Shown here: in pieces, positions 7,333 through 52,050 of the stretch
How the letters are laid out: each line of letters opens with the position of its first letter
How positions within the stretch are numbered: position 1 is the stretch's first letter
Assembly: GCA_964350985.1 (NCBI GenBank)
Contig: CAYGLK010000002.1
Location: 64,382-128,381, forward strand
Reading direction: 5' to 3'
Origin: an uncultured Candidatus Saccharibacteria bacterium
GTDB lineage: Bacteria; Patescibacteriota; Minisyncoccia; Phycocordibacterales; UBA918
DNA length: 64,000 nt
Notes under the pieces: model-generated
Told to the model about the DNA's origin: nothing
Seen by the model: only the letters and a program-made list of their open reading frames with translations
The model's database searches: none
Translations under genes and position numbers: made by a program

Positions 7333-7991
7333 TTTGGTTTATTCTAAATATTCTATCATGCCGATATCGTATACTAGTAGTAGTGTTGAATATTTTTCTT
7401 AAAATCTACGATACTATCTTCCCTCCCCATCAGTGTCTTTTGCAGATTCAGGGCGAGACAAAAGATAGCTTTGTTCGTTTTTTAAGACCACAAAAGATAC
7501 CGGGGGTAATTTACCTAAGTGATTTTCAAATTAAATCTATAAACTCAGCTATTACAGCCAACAAATTTTATAACTCAACTCACGCTAGCCAGATACTTGG
7601 TTCAATACTTGCAACCTGGCTGAAAGATCTACCTTCCGGCAAAACTGCCTTGGTACCTATACCTTTGTCTTACGCTAGACAAAAAGAACGTGGCTATAAT
7701 CAAGTAACAAGGATTCTGGAAAATATAGATATTGATAACTTTGTGGTGTTGGAGGTATTAGAAAAAACTAGACATACCGTACCTCAGACTTCTCTATCTA
7801 GAAAGGAAAGATTGAAAAATATTAACGGAGCCTTTTCAATCAAAAATAAGAGTGAGTTAGCTGACTTTAACAGAATCATTATTATAGACGACGTGGTTAC
7901 AACCGGTACAACCTTAAAAGTAGCCAAAGTGACTCTACTTCCCTATGTTAAAGATGATCAAGAGTTAATCTGTCTAGCAATAGCTCACTAA
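7323..7991 (+). CDS. comFC: ComF-family phosphoribosyltransferase-fold competence protein; the true start is probably downstream of 7323
   Basis: PRTase motif IIIDDVVTTGTTL near the C-terminus. The reported start overlaps the divergent pilM start by 10 bp, so an internal start is likely. No N-terminal Zn-finger Cys pairs. Confidence 0.65.
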   Translation: MISFWFILNILSCRYRILVVVLNIFLKIYDTIFPPHQCLLQIQGETKDSFVRFLRPQKIPGVIYLSDFQIKSINSAITANKFYNSTHASQILGSILATWLKDLPSGKTALVPIPLSYARQKERGYNQVTRILENIDIDNFVVLEVLEKTRHTVPQTSLSRKERLKNINGAFSIKNKSELADFNRIIIIDDVVTTGTTLKVAKVTLLPYVKDDQELICLAIAH

Positions 7992-8061: not shown

Positions 8062-8147
8062 TGGAGAAGTGTCAGAGTGGTCTATCGTGCTTCCTTGCTA
8101 AGGAAGTGGGGTTCACGCCCCCGGAGGTTCGAATCCTCTCTTCTCCG
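8062..8147 (+). tRNA. tRNA-Ser, anticodon GCU (type II tRNA with long variable arm). Non-canonical 18-nt anticodon arm; no encoded CCA
   Basis: Acceptor GGAGAAG/CTTCTCC, T-arm GGAGG-TTCGAAT-CCTCT, variable arm GGGG-TTCACG-CCCC. Anticodon arm cttcc-ttgctaaa-ggaag has one extra nucleotide (8-nt loop, or 6-bp stem plus 6-nt loop). Confidence 0.75.
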
Positions 8148-8157
8148 CTTTTTGAAA

Positions 8158-8184
8158 ATACCGCCTCTGGGCGGTTATTTTCTT
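8158..8184 (+). terminator. Rho-independent terminator after tRNA-Ser (ccgcc-tctg-ggcgg plus T-run)
   Basis: Hairpin 8161-8174 followed by ttattttctt. Confidence 0.6.
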
Positions 8185-8445
8185 AAGCGGAGAAGAAGAA
8201 AAGTGCTAAGGCACTTTTCGTGAGGATTCGAAGACCTTGCCTACTATTTTGTGACGCAAGGAAACAAAATAGTGACAAGGTGTACTGCCTATGTAATGGG
8301 AGAAATTCCTCTCTTCTCGTAACAGTCTGGGAGACTGTTACGTAGGATTCGAAAAGCTTTTGAGGTAGATTCGACCAGAGGGAGAATATATCCAAAAGGT
8401 ATACTGGTTGTGTAACAACCGAAATTCCTCTCTTCTCCGCGAATA
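8185..8445. repeat. tRNA-linked repeat array A: inverted copy of the tRNA-Ser 3' tail, then two degenerate tRNA-3'-half-like units
   Basis: aagcggagaagaag at 8185-8198 is the reverse complement of ctcttctccgctt (8137-8150). Two units each contain a hairpin, a T-loop-like GGATTCGAA and an acceptor-like end gaaattcctctcttctc(cg). Confidence 0.5.
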
Positions 8446-8474
8446 CAAAAAACGCCCGAAAGGGCGATTTTTTG
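8446..8474. terminator. Bidirectional terminator (caaaaaa-cgccc-gaaa-gggcg-attttttg)
   Basis: GC stem flanked by an A-run and a T-run; serves the repeat array on the plus strand and the 739-aa gene on the minus strand. Confidence 0.6.
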
Positions 8475-8494
8475 TACGTCTCTAACATATCATT

Positions 8495-16309: not shown

Positions 16310-16482
16310 AAAAAATACTTTAGCTGCTTTATTAATGGTTTGATTATATCATTTCTATAAATATTTGACTCAAATCTCTTAAAAAGTAGGGATGCCAAAC
16401 CTAAAACCAGGGCTTGGAATAAATGTCTTTTCCCTCTATAATAGGCGCTAACCACAAAAGTGGTGACAATTTGAACGAAGTG

Positions 16483-16634
16483 AATATATTGGAGGATTGG
16501 CTATGAAATCTAATTTGTTTTAGATTTCATCCGATCGTTCCCCAGAACGAATAATCGATGCTTTAGCGAGATTATAGGGAGGGTAACGAAGCCAATCCTA
16601 TCTAAGATCAGAGTGAATATATTGGAGGATTGGC
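16483..16634. repeat. 23-nt direct duplication (gtgaatatattggaggattggct) of the tRNA 5' end plus leader, with an inverted 10-nt copy (agccaatcct) in between
   Basis: Copies at 16483-16505 and 16612-16634; the inverted fragment sits around 16580. Confidence 0.55.
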
Positions 16635-16710
16635 TGAGTGGTTGAAAGCAGCAGTTTACTAAACTGCCGAACCTTAACAGGTTCCGAGAGTTCGAATCTC
16701 TCATCCTCCG
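16624..16710 (+). tRNA. Type II tRNA (Ser-class architecture) with apparent anticodon ACU (loop TTACTAA); unusual A34; no encoded CCA
   Basis: Acceptor GGAGGAT/ATCCTCC, D-loop AGTGGTTGAA, anticodon stem GCAGT/ACTGC, variable arm GAACCT-TAAC-AGGTTC, T-arm GAGAG-TTCGAAT-CTCTC. Confidence 0.65.
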
Positions 16711-16717
16711 CGAGTAC

Positions 16718-16748
16718 AAAAATAAGCACCTTTAGGTGCTTATTTTTG
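16718..16748 (+). terminator. Rho-independent terminator after the tRNA (aataagcacc-ttta-ggtgcttatt plus T-run)
   Basis: Perfect 10-bp stem with flanking A- and T-runs. Confidence 0.6.
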
Positions 16749-16750
16749 TT

Positions 16751-17150
16751 CGCGGAGGATGAAGAAAGCAAATAGTTTTGCTTTCTGTAGAGATTCGAAA
16801 GCCGCAGGCATGTCTGCAAGACAGCCGAGGCGGGGTCGAGAGTCCTTACTAGAATTAGAGCAAAGCGAATAATTATAGTTAGTAACTCGTGACCGAATTT
16901 CTATCTCTATACAACCCATTTAGGGTTGTTTTTATTTGTGCGAGCGAGAGGATGAGTAAGACGCCTGCGCGTCTTACGTAGAGATTCGAAAAGCGCAGCG
17001 ATGCCGGAGGCGAGCGAGTTGGGGTCGAGAACATTTAGTAGATTTGGAGTCGTAGACGAACAAATATACTTAATGATTCGTGACCGAATCTCCAACTCCA
17101 TACAACCCATTTAGGGTTGTTTTTATTTGTGCGAGCGGAGGATGAGAAAT
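16751..17150. repeat. tRNA-linked repeat array B: inverted copy of the tRNA 3' tail, then two tandem units of about 195 bp, each ending in the terminator-like module atacaacccatttagggttgtttttatttgtgcgagcg
   Basis: cgcggaggatga is the reverse complement of tcatcctccgcg (16701-16712). Units span about 16751-16946 and 16947-17137. Each has a hairpin, T-loop-like gtagagattcgaaagc, a GC-rich core and ccgaat + acceptor-like tail. Confidence 0.6.
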
Positions 17151-36876: not shown

Positions 36877-36949
36877 CCGCCTGTAGCTCAGTTGGTAGAG
36901 CGCAGAGCTTATACCTCTGTGGTCCTTGGTTCGAGTCCAAGCGGGCGGA
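36877..36949 (+). tRNA. tRNA with anticodon UAU (loop CTTATAC), putatively tRNA-Ile(UAU); no encoded CCA
   Basis: Acceptor CCGCCTG/CGGGCGG (one G-U), TAGCTCAGTTGGTAGAGC D-arm, anticodon stem CAGAG/CTCTG, T-arm CTTGG-TTCGAGT-CCAAG, discriminator A. Confidence 0.7.
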
Positions 36950-36955
36950 CTGGCG

Positions 36956-37021
36956 TAAAATAAAACTGACAATTGTTAACAATTGTCAGTTTTATTTTAG
37001 TTAGCAAACTTTTTTGCTAAC
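36956..37021 (+). terminator. Double terminator: 44-nt perfect palindrome taaaataaaactgacaattgttaacaattgtcagttttatttta, then hairpin gttagcaaa-ctttt-ttgctaac
   Basis: Perfect palindromes read directly. Confidence 0.6.
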
Positions 37022-37165
37022 GGCGCCAGTCCGAGCCGCAGCGCTGCGAACTAGTGAGCCGCGAGGCGGGATCGCGAACACTTAGTATATTTGGAGTGGT
37101 CGAACAAATATACTTAGTGATTCGTGATGACTGAATGTTTTAAATTTATATTCCTACTGGTCCTT
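37022..37165. repeat. tRNA-linked repeat C: inverted copy of the tRNA 3' trailer (cgccagtccg), then one unit homologous to array B; contains a perfect 15-bp AT-rich hairpin
   Basis: Hairpin is cacttagtatatttg / caaatatacttagtg. About 70 nt align with 17040-17110 of array B. Followed by the terminator aaaaagaacaacg-tcta-acgttgttcttttt (37170-37200). Confidence 0.55.
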
Positions 37166-37251
37166 GGCTAAAAAGAACAACGTCTAACGTTGTTCTTTTT
37201 ATTTTGGAAAAACTCAAATCCCCTTATCTCCTTAAGCTATAATAAATAAAC

Positions 37252-46301: not shown

Positions 46302-48167
46302 ATGAAATTCGAATCGTCTTCTTTTGAAGCAGAACCTTCTTTTGTTGTAACACCTCCACCAATTGACGCCTTACTAAAAATAAGTAGAGAAGGTTCATAC
46401 CTACCACATGAGGTTATGGAGAACGACGAAAGAATCAAACAGGCTGAACTTAGACTAAAAATTCTCGATCTCCTGCAGTCAGTACTCATCACTAATGACG
46501 AGACTAAAACAGACACGTTACCTGATGAACTATACGCTTCACTTACAGAACTACTTCATTCGGACAACCAAAATAATCGGATAATTCTTTACCTCCCGTT
46601 TGAGTGGGTTCCTAAAATTAACCAATCAGACAACGTCTCTGAAAATATCAACCAACAAGCAGAAGCCTTTTTGTCAGCTTATAAAACTGCATGGCTTTCC
46701 CTACTCACCTCATCTGAATTTAGAGCTGATTATGCCGATGGTGATATTCTTGAACCAGCATTTAGAAACGAAAAATTACCTAAGGTGGTAAAAGCGGCAC
46801 ACCTTATACCAGACCTTCTTGAAAGAGGTGTTTTGACTATGGATGAAATTATCACTCTATTTGAAGAGGCTGAGAATACCACCTTGCAAAACAGCATTGC
46901 AGACGGACTTTACGTCGCTCGCGAAAGAAATCTCGTCACAGACGAGCAGCTTGCCAAAATGAAGTTTTCTCAAAACACTTTTGTTTCCAATACCGCCAGA
47001 CTCATTGAGATTGAAATAAAACAACTTACTGAAACAAATAATGAAACAACAGAGCTAGTTCAAATTATTTCAGCGTACGAAGGTGAAATCACAGAAACAC
47101 AAAAAATAGCAGAAAATACGCCGATGACAGAATCACGTCGGGCGTGGCTACAAGCAGCTGACGCCGAAAAAATTATAGAAAAATACGCCTCAAAAATCAC
47201 CAACCGGACTGATCTTGATGCCCTGCTTGTTAGTAAGGAATTAACTCATATCACCCTTGGAATTCGTTCAATCGAATATCTATTGCGCCAAGAAAGCGAC
47301 AGCAAGACACAAGAATCTTTGACTGTAGAGTATCAATCCGTACTTCAAAATTATCTTGACCATGACGTCGAATCAGTCCGCGAGGCAGCCAAAAAGACCC
47401 TCTACCATTTACGCTCACTAGGACTTATCAATGATGCTTCACTAAACTCACAGGGACTTGAGCTGCCACAACTAAATGCCTCATCAGAAACCATTCTAAA
47501 TAAATTGAGTTCGGAAATTCAGCAATTTACCGAAGCTTCAAATCGTATAAAAAATAACGAGATACTTTCTAAGCATGTATACCCAGTTACAGTCTTTCTT
47601 GGTTCACGAATGAAAGGATATGCGTCAGAAGCAGCAGACTTTGATGTCGCCGTGTTTGTGAAGCCAGGTGCCTCTGAAAGCGATCGTCAGATAATCCAAA
47701 AAGAACTTACCACAGTATTTGCTGGCACACCGGCAAAAGGGAGCGCTATGGAATTTTGGCTTGAAGAAAAAAGTGACGGTAACTATACAGTTAAAAACTA
47801 TGAGGTGCTCGATGAGAAGCGTGGAGACAACACCCTAGTTCATCCAATTCTCGGCGCCTGGTGTGGTGAAGAAAAAGCAATTGCTGAACTTCAATCAAGA
47901 CTCATGCCACAATACCTTTTCTCCAAAGACACCGCTATTATGAATGTCGACGCCCGGTCAATTTGGCTAAACGAAATTGAACATACAACATTGAAATACA
48001 GACTAATGCATAAGGGTTATTCACGATTTTCGGCATCACAACTAGGAACACCCACACCTCACAATGATCTCATAGATAGTTCAAGTGCCTTCTATGATCC
48101 TGGCTACCGCCGACTAGCAACCGAACTATTTCTCAAGAAAGTTTTTCTGCCTCAACTATCTAAGTAG
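46302..48167 (+). CDS. Large protein with C-terminal minimal nucleotidyltransferase (pol-beta-like) domain; unknown alpha-helical N-terminal region
   Basis: 621 aa; NTase signature GSRMKGYASEAADFDVAVFV (hG[GS]..D.D) around residues 435-455. Confidence 0.55.
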   Translation: MKFESSSFEAEPSFVVTPPPIDALLKISREGSYLPHEVMENDERIKQAELRLKILDLLQSVLITNDETKTDTLPDELYASLTELLHSDNQNNRIILYLPFEWVPKINQSDNVSENINQQAEAFLSAYKTAWLSLLTSSEFRADYADGDILEPAFRNEKLPKVVKAAHLIPDLLERGVLTMDEIITLFEEAENTTLQNSIADGLYVARERNLVTDEQLAKMKFSQNTFVSNTARLIEIEIKQLTETNNETTELVQIISAYEGEITETQKIAENTPMTESRRAWLQAADAEKIIEKYASKITNRTDLDALLVSKELTHITLGIRSIEYLLRQESDSKTQESLTVEYQSVLQNYLDHDVESVREAAKKTLYHLRSLGLINDASLNSQGLELPQLNASSETILNKLSSEIQQFTEASNRIKNNEILSKHVYPVTVFLGSRMKGYASEAADFDVAVFVKPGASESDRQIIQKELTTVFAGTPAKGSAMEFWLEEKSDGNYTVKNYEVLDEKRGDNTLVHPILGAWCGEEKAIAELQSRLMPQYLFSKDTAIMNVDARSIWLNEIEHTTLKYRLMHKGYSRFSASQLGTPTPHNDLIDSSSAFYDPGYRRLATELFLKKVFLPQLSK

Positions 48168-48171
48168 CATA

Positions 48172-48207
48172 TAAAAAAACAAGCGGCCCCGGGGGACCGC
48201 TTGTTGA
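48172..48207. terminator. Bidirectional terminator (aaaaaaa-caagcggcccc-ggg-ggaccgcttg-tt) between convergent genes
   Basis: GC-rich hairpin with an A-run on the left, which is a T-run for the minus-strand operon. Confidence 0.55.
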
Positions 48208-48226
48208 ACAAGAGCAAAAAGAACGT

Positions 48227-49432
48227 TTACAGCTGACCTTTGTCGCGGGAACCGATACCGCCGCCCCGTCCAGACACACCCGCGGTATCGAGTCGATCCC
48301 ACGGAATCATCGCACCGAGCTGATAGAGAGCCACGATGTACTGCAACTCAGCCTGCCCGGCGGTGACGTTCTGGAACTCGATGATGCCGAGCGCAAATTG
48401 CTTCAGGTTCCGCTCGAGTCGCGGATAGTCAGAAGACACCGCCACTCCCAGCGTGCGCAACATCTGCTCGCGATTGGCCGCGCCCACCTGAGCGGGGAGC
48501 GACGGGTTCTCGAGCACCTTGCGGATCTGCTGGGCGTCATACGCCAGCGCCATAGCGACCGGCATTCCGGTACCAGCGAACACGTAGTTGATGTCATTCA
48601 CAACACCATCAGCCGCATCACGCAGTACCTCAGCGGGAGGCGGTTGCATCATCCCCGGAGGAACGATCCCGCCAGCCCCGCCAGCCAAAGCACTCAGCAT
48701 GCCGACCATGGCGGCCGGATTGCTCATCCCCTGTTGCCAGGCGTCGACCCACTGCTTCAGCTGCTGCTGATACGAGTTCAGCGAGCCCCAGAGACGATTG
48801 TTGATTCGGCCCAAGAGCGCGGCCTTGCGCGCCTGGGTGGCGAAGCGACCGTCGACGCCGGGCATGGCCGCAAAAATCTCGGCGTAGCTCCGGCGGGTCA
48901 GAAGGGCCTGCAACTGGTAGTAGTCGTCACCGACAGGTTCTTGGAGCGATTCCGCCTGACGCTCCATCGCCAGACCGATCTTTTCGGGAAGGTCGAAGAG
49001 GCCAAGACGAGCCGCCAGAGCAGCGCTCACGGTACCGGTGACAGTCTCCTTGTTGAACCTGAGAACGCCACCAACCTTGAGAGCATTGAGCCAGGCTTCG
49101 TCCGAAGGGACGGCCGGCAAGACATCGAAGGTCGCCGCACTCATCGCCGGTACCGCGGTTTCGCTAGCGGCAGGTGCCGGAGCGATTTCACGGAGGCCAG
49201 CAATGGCCTTGGCCAACTTCGCCTTGGGAGCGCCGTCGCCCACCGCCGCACCGATATCGGTGTCGGGAGTGAACTCGCGATCCTTGAGGAGACTGATTGC
49301 TTCATCGCCCGGTTCACCGACCAAGCCCTTCAGCGCAGCGGTGATTTCCTCGACGCTCTTTCCGAGCGCAGTGGCAAACGGGGTGATGTAAGCGACCCAA
49401 CCTTCAGGAAGGGTGATGGTTGTATCATTCAT
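48227..49432 (-). CDS. GC-rich hypothetical protein (401 aa), last gene of the GC-rich operon; no recognisable motif
   Basis: Long ORF with high-GC codon bias; Ala/Gly/Gln-rich low-complexity stretches. Confidence 0.55.
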   Translation of the reverse strand: MNDTTITLPEGWVAYITPFATALGKSVEEITAALKGLVGEPGDEAISLLKDREFTPDTDIGAAVGDGAPKAKLAKAIAGLREIAPAPAASETAVPAMSAATFDVLPAVPSDEAWLNALKVGGVLRFNKETVTGTVSAALAARLGLFDLPEKIGLAMERQAESLQEPVGDDYYQLQALLTRRSYAEIFAAMPGVDGRFATQARKAALLGRINNRLWGSLNSYQQQLKQWVDAWQQGMSNPAAMVGMLSALAGGAGGIVPPGMMQPPPAEVLRDAADGVVNDINYVFAGTGMPVAMALAYDAQQIRKVLENPSLPAQVGAANREQMLRTLGVAVSSDYPRLERNLKQFALGIIEFQNVTAGQAELQYIVALYQLGAMIPWDRLDTAGVSGRGGGIGSRDKGQL

Positions 49433-49476
49433 GACTTCTCTCCACGTAGATGCGGGTTTTGCCCGCGGGTTGTATT

Positions 49477-50865
49477 TCAGAAAATTGCTTTGTCGAGTTC
49501 GGTGGGACCGAACGCGAGCATGCGTAGTGGAATGCCGAGGTTTTCGGCGACCAGCTCCTTGGCTAGTGCAATGGCACCATCCTTAGAGCCACCGGGAATC
49601 ATGTGGCGAGTAATGACCGGCTTTGCGCTCATGAGCGCTTTACCAAGTCCTTCCTGATACCACAGTTGTTTGTCGTCTTCTCCTCTTCTAACGATTATTT
49701 CACCTTCCTTGGTGAAATAGTTTTGATCGAGCTCACCTTCGTAACGCTGGCAAACATCCCAAGCGCCGAAACGCAAAGGGGTGTCAAACCAAGTCATTGC
49801 CACGGCGTCAAAAGTGCCGCTGCCTCCACTCACCTCCTTGGCGTAGCGGAGCGCAACAAAGTCTAGCGGGCCAACACGCACCTTACCACGATAGCGATCG
49901 GGCTTGCCGACCTCTTCGGGAAGTAGCGTTTCGGCCATCTTCGCATCGTCAACCACAAGCGGCCCGGCCCCGTGTCTGATTTGATACGAGCGTGTCACAC
50001 CGATTTTTGCGACGTCACCATCCCATCCGTTCTCGCGGAGCAGACTCCAAGAGGTTATCTCAGGGAGTGTCCGGAGGCGGGTGGTATGAGGATGAAAGCC
50101 GTTAAAGCGATCGGTGAGAATACCGTGTGAACTTTCAACCACAATCACTCCGTCGCGAGATAGAACCTCACGACGCAAATAGTCATGATCGACAATGCGC
50201 ACACTCCTCCCAAATTCTTCAAACACATCGCCGACCCAATCAAGGAATCCGTCAGTGCGAATGAGATCAATCTGCTTCTGCACCTCTTCAACGTCGCCTG
50301 CCAGATAGCCTGCTTCCAAGACAAGTGCCAGGTCGCAGAGCTTTTGTGCATGTGCTGCACGAAGCTTTTCTCTGATACCTGGTTGCTTGAGATCCCTTGC
50401 TCTAATCGCCAGTTCCGGAAAGAGTTCGGCGTCGAGGAATGCTTCCCCAACACCAACACCTACCGTCCCTTTTGGGTTTTCCTTGCGAGCAAGTTCCTTC
50501 AGTCGTGACGCTATGCCATGAAAAGGCGTCGTCACGAGGGCATTCTCATCGACAGCGATAATAGACAACGGGTCGTAAATTCCATGTTCGTAGCGGAGCT
50601 CCTTAGCCTCGTTGAGGAAGCCAAGGGGCGAAACCACAAACCGGTCAGTCACGAACGTGCGGGCACCATTGAAGGTGCCACACCCGAACTGACTGAAGGC
50701 AAACTGTTCACCACGGGAGGTTGTTACGCCGTGATGTCCTTGTGCTCCCCCAACCTTGATGACGGTATGGGGTTTTCGGAGTGAGCACAACTTGTGCACC
50801 ACACCCCCTTTCCCCCCGTCACCACCACCAAGGTCGGTGACAGTATAGGCTTTCTTTTCGACCAT
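49477..50865 (-). CDS. Divergent adenylosuccinate synthetase (PurA/PurZ family) homologue
   Basis: 462 aa; GGGDGGKGG aligns with the GDEGKGK P-loop, GGAQGHHG with GGHNAGH, VVSP with VLSP, GTVGVGVGEAF with GTTGRGIGPAY, VESSHGILTD with FEGAQGTLLD, RHGAGP with RVGAGP. Several substrate-contact positions are substituted. Confidence 0.6.
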   Translation of the reverse strand: MVEKKAYTVTDLGGGDGGKGGVVHKLCSLRKPHTVIKVGGAQGHHGVTTSRGEQFAFSQFGCGTFNGARTFVTDRFVVSPLGFLNEAKELRYEHGIYDPLSIIAVDENALVTTPFHGIASRLKELARKENPKGTVGVGVGEAFLDAELFPELAIRARDLKQPGIREKLRAAHAQKLCDLALVLEAGYLAGDVEEVQKQIDLIRTDGFLDWVGDVFEEFGRSVRIVDHDYLRREVLSRDGVIVVESSHGILTDRFNGFHPHTTRLRTLPEITSWSLLRENGWDGDVAKIGVTRSYQIRHGAGPLVVDDAKMAETLLPEEVGKPDRYRGKVRVGPLDFVALRYAKEVSGGSGTFDAVAMTWFDTPLRFGAWDVCQRYEGELDQNYFTKEGEIIVRRGEDDKQLWYQEGLGKALMSAKPVITRHMIPGGSKDGAIALAKELVAENLGIPLRMLAFGPTELDKAIF

Positions 50866-50931
50866 AAAACCTCCCAGTCATTGTGACCGCAAGTGTGCAG
50901 GACTCTCGTCCTGCACACCTTTACGGCAAGT

Positions 50932-52050
50932 TCAGAGCCACGTTCCGCCAGCGGCGGCTTCGGGCTCACTTCCTTCTTCAGCGACCGGCCACAGGTCGTG
51001 CTTGTTGGCAAACACCGCTCCCTTCCCGGGAATCTTGTCGAAATTGGGGAAGAGCGTCTGTGCGCCAAGCGGGATGTGCGCCACTGCGCGCTGAATTTCA
51101 CGCGCCACAGTTGCACTACACCCAGTTTCCGTGAGGAAACCCACGACCGACTGCAGGTCGAGTACACCTTCCGTCAGACCGATGATGGCCGCTTCGACGT
51201 AAGCGATGTGCTTGGTGGTATCAATCACCACCACGTGTTCATCCCCGTAGTACCGCCGCCAGTAGTTGACACTGTCACGGCCCACCATGATGGCAAACGC
51301 ATGAGCCCGCTTCTTGAGCACGCTCATGATCTCATCAGTTCCAGACGGAAAATCCCGCTGGTCCATCGGAAAGCCATTGTCCGAGCACCGCTCGAACACC
51401 GTCTCGCCGAACACCCGGATGAGATGCCGCTTGTCGACACGTCCATGACTCGTGGCGTCCGTCGTCATGAAGTGGTACGGCAGCAGACCGTAGCGGTTGA
51501 TGAAGGGGTCGGTGAGGAACGCTGCCCCGAAGAGACCGTATTCCGGATCTTCTGGCTCGTCGCCACCCTTGCCTTCAGCAATCATGAGCACGAGTTGCTC
51601 AGCGATACGGACATCCATCTCCGCCTGCGTTCGGGCGAGGACGAACTTGTCCTCCACGTCACCGAACATGGCATTCATGATCTGCACATCGTACCGTCCG
51701 AGGAGCGGGTTTGCACCCGCCGTCAGGAGGTCGTACTGCTTCGGCAGCGAGTCGAAGATCAGGCGAATGTTGCTGGCCATGGAACCCGTCGTATCGAACA
51801 AGTTCTCGACGAGCATCGGTACCCCGACGCCGAGCCGGAACTTGCCGTTCACGAGTTCATCATAGCGAGGCCACGACTTCCGTACCAGGTCATACCCAGC
51901 CGGATCGACGAGGGCATGAAGTGCCCCCGTCGCTTCGTAGTGTTGCCGACCTGCGTGTGAGGCATCGCCACCTGCGGCAGCGACCTTGGCGGATTCTCCG
52001 GCGTAGGCCGAACGATCAAAGTGACGAAAGCTCTTGTCTGCACGACTCAT
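50932..52050 (-). CDS. vWA-like (MIDAS-type) domain protein, tentative
   Basis: 372 aa; beta-strand MLVENLF followed by DTTGSM (compare DxSGSM); overlaps the upstream gene by 4 bp (ATGA). Confidence 0.4.
   Translation of the reverse strand: MSRADKSFRHFDRSAYAGESAKVAAAGGDASHAGRQHYEATGALHALVDPAGYDLVRKSWPRYDELVNGKFRLGVGVPMLVENLFDTTGSMASNIRLIFDSLPKQYDLLTAGANPLLGRYDVQIMNAMFGDVEDKFVLARTQAEMDVRIAEQLVLMIAEGKGGDEPEDPEYGLFGAAFLTDPFINRYGLLPYHFMTTDATSHGRVDKRHLIRVFGETVFERCSDNGFPMDQRDFPSGTDEIMSVLKKRAHAFAIMVGRDSVNYWRRYYGDEHVVVIDTTKHIAYVEAAIIGLTEGVLDLQSVVGFLTETGCSATVAREIQRAVAHIPLGAQTLFPNFDKIPGKGAVFANKHDLWPVAEEGSEPEAAAGGTWL

Follow-up and report, generated by a model that had tools for sequence, protein, structure and literature searches.

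The DNA examined here is a window of 64,000 nucleotides (nt) from an uncultured bacterium labelled Candidatus Saccharibacteria (contig CAYGLK010000002.1, positions 64,382 to 128,381 of the forward strand), in which three tRNA genes are each followed by repeated sequence. These repeats are copies of a widespread and apparently undescribed family of folded RNA modules found in ultra-small Patescibacteria. They form a conserved, sense-strand structured family tied to gene termini, the helix that closes each module is templated on the neighbouring gene, and units have been gained and lost. It is well supported that the modules at the three loci of the window belong to a Patescibacteria-wide superfamily of cis-encoded structured RNA modules at the ends of tRNA, tmRNA and a few other genes. 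Modules with antisense and sense copies of the neighbouring tRNA end could control or exploit tRNA maturation.

Structured modules behind tRNA genes

As called by ARAGORN and Rfam, the RNA genes of the window are three tRNAs and one tmRNA. The tRNAs are tRNA-Ser(GCU) at locus A (8063-8148), tRNA-Ser(ACU) at locus B (16624-16711) and tRNA-Ile(UAU) at locus C (36877-36950), all on the plus strand and all without an encoded CCA. An earlier note on this DNA had described a four-part pattern behind these genes, and the description is borne out: a CCA-less tRNA is followed by a terminator, an inverted copy of its 3' end, one or more structured units and, usually, a closing terminator. The order 3' of all three tRNAs, on the same strand, is terminator hairpin, inverted tRNA 3'-end copy and one or two structured units of 110-190 nt each, and a unit is usually trailed by a direct copy of the tRNA 3' end and a further terminator. 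The units fall into two related families, A-type (two copies, at locus A) and B-type (three copies, at loci B and C). Profile hidden Markov models (HMMs) recover exactly these five copies in the window, three of B-type and two of A-type, and each lies behind one of the three tRNAs.

Self-alignment of the loci, from which the earlier note had expected significant similarity, gave it in each case: between units A1 and A2, which lie ~120 nt apart (67% identity over 103 nt, E=1e-6), between units B1 and B2 (75% identity over 236 nt, E=2e-35) and between the B and C cores (78% identity over 93 nt, E=3e-14). The note's view of the units as tRNA-3'-half-like did not hold. A tRNA covariance model and ARAGORN score only the true tRNAs, returning nothing at E<=10 in 8149-8480 and 16712-17150, and the supposed T-loop-like GGATTCGAA is no T loop; it is the T arm copied in antisense.

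A degenerate 28-nt pattern from the B core, covering the long hairpin common to B1, B2 and C, was scanned against GTDB contigs (one genome per species) and matched at least 117 stretches. Among the matches listed, all but one of the record titles name Patescibacteria lineages or give 'bacterium' only; the named records are Paceibacterota, Kaiser-, Zambryski-, Nomura- and Wolfebacteria, Minisyncoccia, and metagenome-assembled genomes labelled 'Saccharibacteria'. One B-type module lies on a contig binned as Parachlamydiaceae (L055, JBAWVE010000197.1, 3979 bp), which is probably a mis-binned Patescibacteria contig. No viral contig matched the B-core pattern. A 21-mer from the core of unit A2 matched 34 JGI metagenome contigs, a count that covers the A-type motif only. 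HMMs built from the pattern matches identified 169 B and 75 A copies in the fetched loci. When the same tRNA loci are compared between related genomes, arrays are present in some and absent in others, and the cores recur in hundreds of Patescibacteria genomes and metagenome contigs.

Where there is a tRNA or tmRNA on its strand, a core begins 79-185 nt 3' of that gene, and this is seen for every isotype. Such a gene lies no more than 450 nt upstream for 156 of 205 modules. In loci that were selected for carrying modules, 134 of the 191 sampled tRNA and tmRNA genes have one. Modules are also found behind tmRNA, behind rplB (in two genomes, with an antisense segment complementary to the last codons) and behind other genes, and L121 has a tRNA-like end at a non-tRNA site. 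An Rfam 15 scan of the window at gathering scores reported the tRNAs and tmRNA only, with no family covering the units, and scans of loci A and B at E<=10 gave only weak noise matches far below gathering scores. We found no description of the modules in the literature on tRNA-linked repeats, terminators, miniature inverted-repeat transposable elements (MITEs) or folded single-stranded DNA (ssDNA) attP sites in Patescibacteria, the candidate phyla radiation (CPR) or Parcubacteria.

Fold, strand and covariation of the cores

Across 108 B cores, 93% of cells are paired under the proposed fold, compared to 30-40% when the partners are slid, and the covariation score is 0.38 compared to 0.04-0.08 in the slid controls. 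E-values and shuffles throughout are uncorrected for relatedness among sequences; the slid controls do correct for it. Double changes occur at 18 of the 32 pairs of the B core (for example GC 63/AU 42, GC 71/CG 28 and AU 55/UA 51), and the three-base-pair foot of helix P2 and the inner part of helix P1 likewise covary. One G-U pair is kept in 106 of the 108 sequences. Since this pair would be a C-A mismatch on the opposite strand, the fold is on the tRNA strand. The long hairpin of the A-type core has compensatory changes at all 14 of its 14 pairs, and units A1 and A2 both fit it. Of 233 modules, 200 contain a small hairpin, P0; its stem comes in 182 versions, but its loops are recurrent (CTGC in B-type, GGG in A-type). 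An apical GA/GC-GAA-GC/GAA motif is common to the A-type, the B-type and a third core type, and because they share this motif we treat the three as one superfamily. The whole transcript of locus A has a folding z of -11 relative to shuffled sequence.

We conclude that the module is a folded single strand on the tRNA strand, most simply RNA. As in a riboswitch, a covarying, aptamer-like core is closed by P1. It should also be noted that a 101-amino-acid open reading frame (ORF) on the minus strand (8183-8488) lies antisense to the entire locus A array; given the RNA-type covariation, this ORF is almost certainly spurious. More specific motifs were assessed by eye and rejected. A kissing interaction between the P0 loop (CUGC) and P2 (GCAG) lacks covariation, the consensus order of a K-turn does not fit the P2 internal loop, and the junction sequences required for a hammerhead or other small ribozyme core are missing.

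Copied gene ends and the history of the loci

A 3' module consists, in order, of a terminator-type hairpin (H0), an antisense copy (X') of the last 10-25 nt of the gene, a core of two or three helices and a sense 'decoy' copy (X2). X' is often split by P0, and X' and X2 pair to form P1, the helix that closes the core. Antisense or sense 10-mers from the acceptor or T part, with at most two mismatches, were detected in 38-51 of 113 first modules and in 0-3 upstream controls. A direct copy of the tRNA 3' 14-mer, again with at most two mismatches, lies downstream of 47 of 172 related-genome tRNAs, while the best upstream match has four mismatches. The mismatch spectrum of the decoys is bimodal (34, 6, 7, 9 and 12 for 0-4 mismatches), as expected if X2 must stay equal to the tRNA end. 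Forty-five perfect direct repeats begin in the T loop and 34 of these stop 0-3 nt beyond the discriminator; the repeats of B-type modules most often start at C56, 19 nt ahead of the discriminator, and those of A-type modules 15 nt ahead of it. CCA is copied only where it is encoded. X' runs on through the trailer into H0, and the tRNA end (X1), H0 and X' form a single long palindrome. Because X' spans the trailer, it is a copy of the gene or precursor, not of the mature tRNA. Modules of a 'short class' use only the last few tRNA bases and the trailer, with P0 itself serving as H0.

Copies of the tRNA 3' end occur only downstream and copies of the 5' end only upstream. The 5' modules are mirror images that run decoy, core, antisense and then tRNA. 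At 17 of 181 tRNAs the 5' end is perfectly copied over 13-48 bp, upstream of a structured insert of 65-235 nt; 11 of the 17 copies begin at position -1 or 0 and end in the D loop. Some of these inserts contain the same core types and an antisense copy beside the real tRNA. In the window, tRNA-Ser(ACU) has such a module on its 5' side (16479-16635, plus strand), where perfect 24-bp direct repeats (16479-16502 and 16612-16635, corresponding to tRNA positions -12 to +12) bracket a 109-nt structured insert with an inverted copy of tRNA positions 3-12 at 16590-16599. The site is empty in the orthologous loci of two relatives, L083 and L087. A related insert lies ahead of tRNA-Ser(UGA) in L020 (4547-4700). 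In L117, on the minus strand upstream of a module at ~7576-7603, a tRNA 3' half (T arm and acceptor) lies behind a structured stretch of ~200 nt; this could be a tRNA that contains a large intron and escaped ARAGORN.

Module content also differs between close relatives on the 3' side. In the closest relative of the window genome, the orthologous comF-tRNA-Ser(GCU) locus has only a small hairpin and a plain terminator, and the array present in the window is absent in L002/L003. L083 has one extra 150-nt module compared to L087, with flanks ~90% identical, and the antisense segment of this module matches the tRNA perfectly over 17 nt. Core identity is 72% within a genome and 71% between genomes, the nearest neighbour of 61 of 68 cores is in another genome, and a burst signature is absent. 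Cores behind tRNAs with the same anticodon are more alike (75.1% vs 72.2%, reached by 0 of 500 shuffles for the whole core), while for the 28-mer alone the relation to tRNA identity is not significant (p ~0.09). On these comparisons, cores track tRNA identity weakly but significantly, indicating a long vertical association with some replacement.

Contigs of several relatives (L003, L004, L005, L007, L008 and L009) end 50-350 nt past comF, at or just beyond the tRNA-Ser gene, and the window genome's own Logan contig (L001) likewise ends at the array. The modules probably break short-read assemblies. A small conserved hairpin of the CTCGTGCTAGCACGAG type occurs in L002 (2786-2806) and after the module in L075, L018 and L135. 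It sits between the tRNA end or decoy and a TACAAAAA...TTTTTGTA terminator, and may be the ancestral trailer.

At locus A, where all features are on the plus strand, the part of tRNA-Ser(GCU) that is copied downstream is its last ~21 nt, from T loop to discriminator (X1, 8128-8148). H0 follows at 8154-8182, with a GC stem (8160-8175), an A tract before it and a T tract after it, and the inverted copy of the tRNA tail gives arms at 8139-8165 and 8170-8196. The first antisense segment, X'a (8187-8198, GCGGAGAAGAAG), is an inverted copy of the acceptor 3' strand and discriminator. The P0 hairpin of unit A1 (8199-8219) divides the antisense copy at the acceptor/T-stem boundary; beyond it lies X't (8222-8233), in which GAGGATTCGAA (8222-8232) is the exact reverse complement of TTCGAATCCTC in the T arm of the tRNA. 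The A1 core (8234-8301) consists of a long hairpin (8234-8282) and a short hairpin and is of a diverged A-type (nhmmer 8202-8296, E=9e-11); the X2 behind it (8302-8319, GAAATTCCTCTCTTCTCG) is a direct copy of the tRNA 3' end. Unit A2 opens with a P0 hairpin (8320-8341, TAACAGTCTGGGAGACTGTTAC) that has the GGG-type loop typical of A-type modules. Its X't (8344-8353, AGGATTCGAA) is again an exact reverse complement of tRNA TTCGAATCCTC, and its core (8357-8420; nhmmer 8323-8431, E=6e-29) has the covarying long hairpin at 8357-8399 and a TACTGGTTGTGTAACAACC hairpin from 8402. The X2 of A2 (8421-8441) copies the tRNA 3' end directly as far as the discriminator, without a mismatch across 15 nt (8426-8440). 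Within the locus, TCCTCTCTTCTC(CGC) recurs in direct orientation at 8306-8318 and 8426-8440. The closing terminator (8442-8476, stem 8453-8466) resembles the plain TACAAAAA...TTTTTGTA terminator of the same tRNA in the array-free relative.

Loci B and C are also on the plus strand. H0, X'a and P0 of unit B1 occupy 16712-16786 (hairpin 16712-16750; CGCGGAGGATGA 16751-16762; P0 16763-16786). Unit B1 itself (16787-16908) has X't and a junction at 16787-16801, a B-type core with helices P2 and P3 (nhmmer 16793-16900, E=8e-28) and a degenerate X2 (16894-16908) still able to pair with X't via G-U pairs. A terminator and unit B2 follow at 16909-17099, with the terminator at 16911-16929, X'a at 16940-16956, P0 at 16957-16978, the core detected by nhmmer at 16984-17091 (E=3e-24) and X2 at 17085-17099. 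The locus ends (17100-17146) with a terminator (17102-17120), after which the acceptor 3' strand of the tRNA is copied in antisense for a third time (17131-17146), here with no core behind it. The single module of locus C (36956-37199) comprises H0 (36956-36999), P0 (37000-37021), X' (37022-37033), a B-type core (nhmmer 37031-37130, E=3e-22), a closing strand ACTGGTCC (~37156-37166) and a terminator (~37171-37199); its X', GGCGCCAGTCCG, is complementary to the last 4 nt of the tRNA and 6 nt of trailer. A GC-rich hairpin with a sense-strand T run, as in an intrinsic terminator, is present at 8160-8175, 8453-8466, 16911-16929 and 17102-17120; it is a property of H0 and closing hairpins only, not of cores. 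Nothing consistent was found for internal promoters in the array loci.

The surroundings of the loci gave several further observations. A ComF-like ORF adjoins locus A and has a 100% identical counterpart on a 304-kb NCBI contig; its closest other relative is 56% identical, and its named homologues are from Paceibacterota. The ACU anticodon of the tRNA-Ser at locus B has A34, and this tRNA occurs in three genomes (window 16624-16711; L083 1264-1351; L087 2101-2188). A34 is unusual in bacteria except in tRNA-Arg(ACG), and here it may be read as inosine or may be a sign of odd AGN decoding. The tRNA-Ile at 36877-36950 has the anticodon UAU, of which the usual counterpart is a lysidine-modified CAU; the same tRNA is found in L015. 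The source genome of the window belongs to Candidatus Paceibacterota (Patescibacteria/CPR) and has a GC content of ~39%. A GC-rich island (~48000-52000; 57-58% GC vs ~39% elsewhere) lies a few kb 3' of the tmRNA and contains an adenylosuccinate-synthetase-like gene and several ORFs without a Pfam match. It may have been horizontally acquired; no integrase was detected in it, nor was any recombinase domain found near the tmRNA or island.

Possible roles of the modules

Our preferred reading, which we put forward tentatively as possible rather than probable, is that these are leader and trailer RNA modules in which an anti-end strand pairs with either the tRNA terminus or a decoy, and in which the conserved core closes the decoy helix. 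The module would be transcribed within the tRNA trailer or leader, in the 3' case via read-through of H0. X' would then have two mutually exclusive partners, the real tRNA terminus and the decoy X2. Pairing with the terminus would lengthen H0 into a 30-45 bp hairpin and unfold the acceptor and T arms. Maturation by RNase P, RNase Z and CCA addition would then be blocked, or the transcript would become open to an RNase specific for double strands. Pairing with X2 would leave the tRNA free. The core inside P1, like the aptamer of a riboswitch, would set the balance by its own stability or by binding a protein or ligand. We infer that toggling of the antisense strand between terminus and decoy, with the balance set by the core, may control tRNA maturation or the fate of the read-through transcript. 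Modules would arise and vanish by insertion or duplication events that copy the gene end, and such events would account for the arrays and for the differences between relatives.

Folding predictions are consistent with two states. For the full transcripts of loci A, B and C, ViennaRNA prefers the fold that pairs X' with the tRNA end over the cloverleaf plus P1 by 26, 23 and 10 kcal/mol, respectively, and in silico X' has an alternative and exclusive pairing (tRNA end or X2), as the switching strand of a riboswitch does. At locus B, all three X'a segments remain complementary to the tRNA over 9-12 nt, whereas the decoys, as read from the sequence, have drifted; X't of unit B1 can form 11 bp with its decoy (G-U pairs included) vs 9 bp with the tRNA. 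In the 5' modules (17 of 181 tRNAs), the transcription order is the same as in a classical riboswitch.

Several observations weigh against this anti-end switch. H0 looks like a competent terminator, and its read-through is assumed. By the time a 3' module is transcribed, the tRNA is already folded, so X' may invade it slowly for kinetic reasons. Any one tRNA can do without its module, as the plain terminator behind tRNA-Ser(GCU) of the closest relative illustrates; ~30% of the sampled tRNAs have no A- or B-type module, and about half of the first modules have no recognisable acceptor-end copy. Several distinct core families would each have to be a sensor, and the long helix P3, conserved in both sequence and pairing, would suit a protein partner or a DNA-level site equally. 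Tandem arrays, long perfect target-like duplications and the recent gain in L083 compared to L087 all resemble mobile elements. We consider it unlikely that the modules are RNA sensors (metabolite or protein aptamers) that gate the maturation of most tRNAs and of tmRNA through such an anti-acceptor toggle.

Riboswitches and T-boxes are similar in several respects. They too have a conserved multi-helix core inside a closing helix, the 5' strand of which can pair elsewhere; the modules occur in many copies per genome, each fitted to its own gene as T-boxes are to their tRNA, and the 5' modules share the riboswitch order of aptamer, switching strand and target. Unlike these systems, which act on an mRNA terminator or a ribosome-binding site, the modules would have the tRNA itself as their target; most of them lie 3' of it, no Rfam family matches, and the switching helix is a literal copy of the neighbouring gene end. 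The earlier note had offered a lineage-specific processing or insulation module as one of two readings, and this comes closer to the data: the modules are lineage-restricted, on the tRNA strand, attached to tRNA termini and selected as RNA, with processing or insulation as a putative function.

Other known systems share single features. Group IIC introns also lie directly behind a terminator hairpin in sense orientation, and a segment complementary to the upstream flank is reminiscent of the exon-binding and intron-binding site (EBS/IBS) pairing or internal guide sequence of group II and group I introns. However, the cores are far too small, have neither domain V/VI nor P3-P8, and leave the host gene uninterrupted; with no Rfam intron match in loci A and B and the upstream tRNA intact, an intron was rejected. 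The span of the antisense copy, from the tRNA 3' end back to the T loop, is that of the 18-nt primer-binding site of long terminal repeat (LTR) retroelements, and the duplicated pieces (T loop to end, or position 1 to D loop) match those of the tRNA-derived fragments tRF-3 and tRF-5. Unlike a primer-binding site, the antisense extends into the genomic trailer and has no CCA complement unless CCA is encoded, so a site for priming by mature tRNA is unlikely; no reverse transcriptase was seen. A CRISPR/TIGR-type guide array was also rejected: the units are structured and 110-190 nt long, the variable part is the end of the neighbouring gene, and no effector gene is nearby.

The main alternative is a non-autonomous mobile insertion, similar to MITEs or to short interspersed nuclear elements (SINEs), that would home to the point where the mature end of a gene meets its terminator or leader, with duplication of a 13-25 bp target. 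We regard this as somewhat less likely than the switch. In this case the fold would be kept for a trans-acting mobilisation machinery, and the antisense strand would either guide homing or result incidentally from fold-back copying at the hairpin. It would fit the extra L083 module with its perfect 17-nt antisense, the array in the window where L002/L003 have none, and the 24-bp repeats around the 5' insert, which match an empty site in L083 and L087 as a MITE target duplication would. Tandem arrays with several core families, direct repeats varying from 13 to 48 bp, modules behind rplB and other genes, the tRNA-like end at a non-tRNA site in L121, and the contigs of relatives that break right behind the tRNA can all be counted for it as well. 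The modules also resemble repetitive extragenic palindromes and their mosaics (REP/BIME), Correia and RUP elements, Rickettsia palindromic elements and MITEs in being short, ORF-less, multi-copy hairpins at gene 3' ends near terminators. Unlike these, however, they have no terminal inverted repeats constant between copies; the closing helix is locus-specific and copied from the neighbouring gene at every locus, module orientation is strictly gene-sense, and there is no within-genome homogeneity. Divergence within a genome equals that between genomes and nearest neighbours lie elsewhere for 61 of 68 cores, the opposite of a burst, and the correlation of cores with tRNA identity implies vertical inheritance. 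None of the ~240 modules is an ORF-bearing or autonomous copy, the spacing between core halves never admits an ORF, no integrase, transposase or reverse transcriptase was seen near the modules, and no viral contig matched. The antisense strand is kept although one point mutation would neutralise a harmful by-product, and a repeat length that varies from 13 to 48 bp is unlike the target duplication of a DDE transposase. The switch and mobile readings are not exclusive, since an element that was domesticated or had long been resident would combine the features of both.

The remaining alternatives fare less well. In one, P1 copies the acceptor/T helix and P0 replaces the tRNA body, so that RNase P and RNase Z, and perhaps the CCA-adding enzyme, release a stable small RNA, with its own function, from a tRNA-end mimic. 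The 3' strand of P1 does correspond to tRNA positions 56-73, with the discriminator as its last base, P0 falls precisely on the acceptor/T-stem boundary, and the core is conserved like a trans-acting RNA. On the other hand, the T loop is turned into a helix, which leaves no tRNA elbow, the tRNA covariance model finds no match, CCA is not copied, and short-class and post-rplB modules make P1 from trailer or coding sequence without tRNA shape; a mimic is improbable. We give still less credence to a DNA-level recombination site, in which the X1-H0-X' palindrome or the hairpins would fold in ssDNA for a tyrosine recombinase or HUH enzyme, in the manner of integron attC sites, the attP of CTX phage or REP/RAYT, and units would pile up at tRNA ends. 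Long perfect palindromes run across the tRNA end, direct repeats stand at unit boundaries, DNA hairpins also tolerate G-T pairs, and the T arm is a classic crossover site of tRNA-targeting integrases. Yet orientation follows tRNA transcription in every case seen, loops and internal loops are RNA-like (GAA, GNRA-type, tandem G-A), no recombinase was found nearby, and the repeats vary in length and stop where mature RNAs end, not at a constant core site.

Decayed attL/attR scars, the other reading of the earlier note, or a functionless tandem duplication of the tRNA 3' half, can hardly account for the arrays. What stands of that reading is the direct duplication of tRNA 3' ends at unit boundaries, as between att sites, together with gain and loss. 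As in the tandem accretion of integrative elements (CIME-type, between attL and attR), direct repeats running from T loop to end bound stacked units that vary between relatives. The DNA between the repeats, however, is not decaying cargo but a fold conserved across Patescibacteria orders with compensatory covariation, and the same cores stand behind all isotypes rather than as locus-unrelated cargo. Units are 110-190 nt rather than kilobases long, each holds an inverted copy of its target, and the same modules occur at tRNA 5' ends and behind rplB and other non-tRNA genes. The earlier note's remark that no integrase is nearby holds among the ORFs checked: none was found among those neighbouring the loci, and no autonomous copy was seen.

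Whether switch or mobile element, the modules constitute a structured RNA family at most sampled tRNA genes of these tiny genomes that is missing from Rfam, they probably account for breaks in Patescibacteria assemblies at tRNA genes, and they can serve as a simple clade marker. Mobile modules would be ORF-less elements of a new kind, with ends rebuilt from the target and homing to mature RNA termini, implying an unknown mechanism of mobilisation. RNA switches would add a previously unrecognised layer to tRNA regulation in a very large bacterial branch that is uncultured, and a new mode of action for a cis RNA, the unfolding of a neighbouring RNA. Were they also sensors, tRNAs themselves would for the first time be seen under riboswitch-type control, exerted from the 3' side, which would amount to genome-wide, RNA-only control of translation capacity in ultra-small, regulator-poor bacteria.

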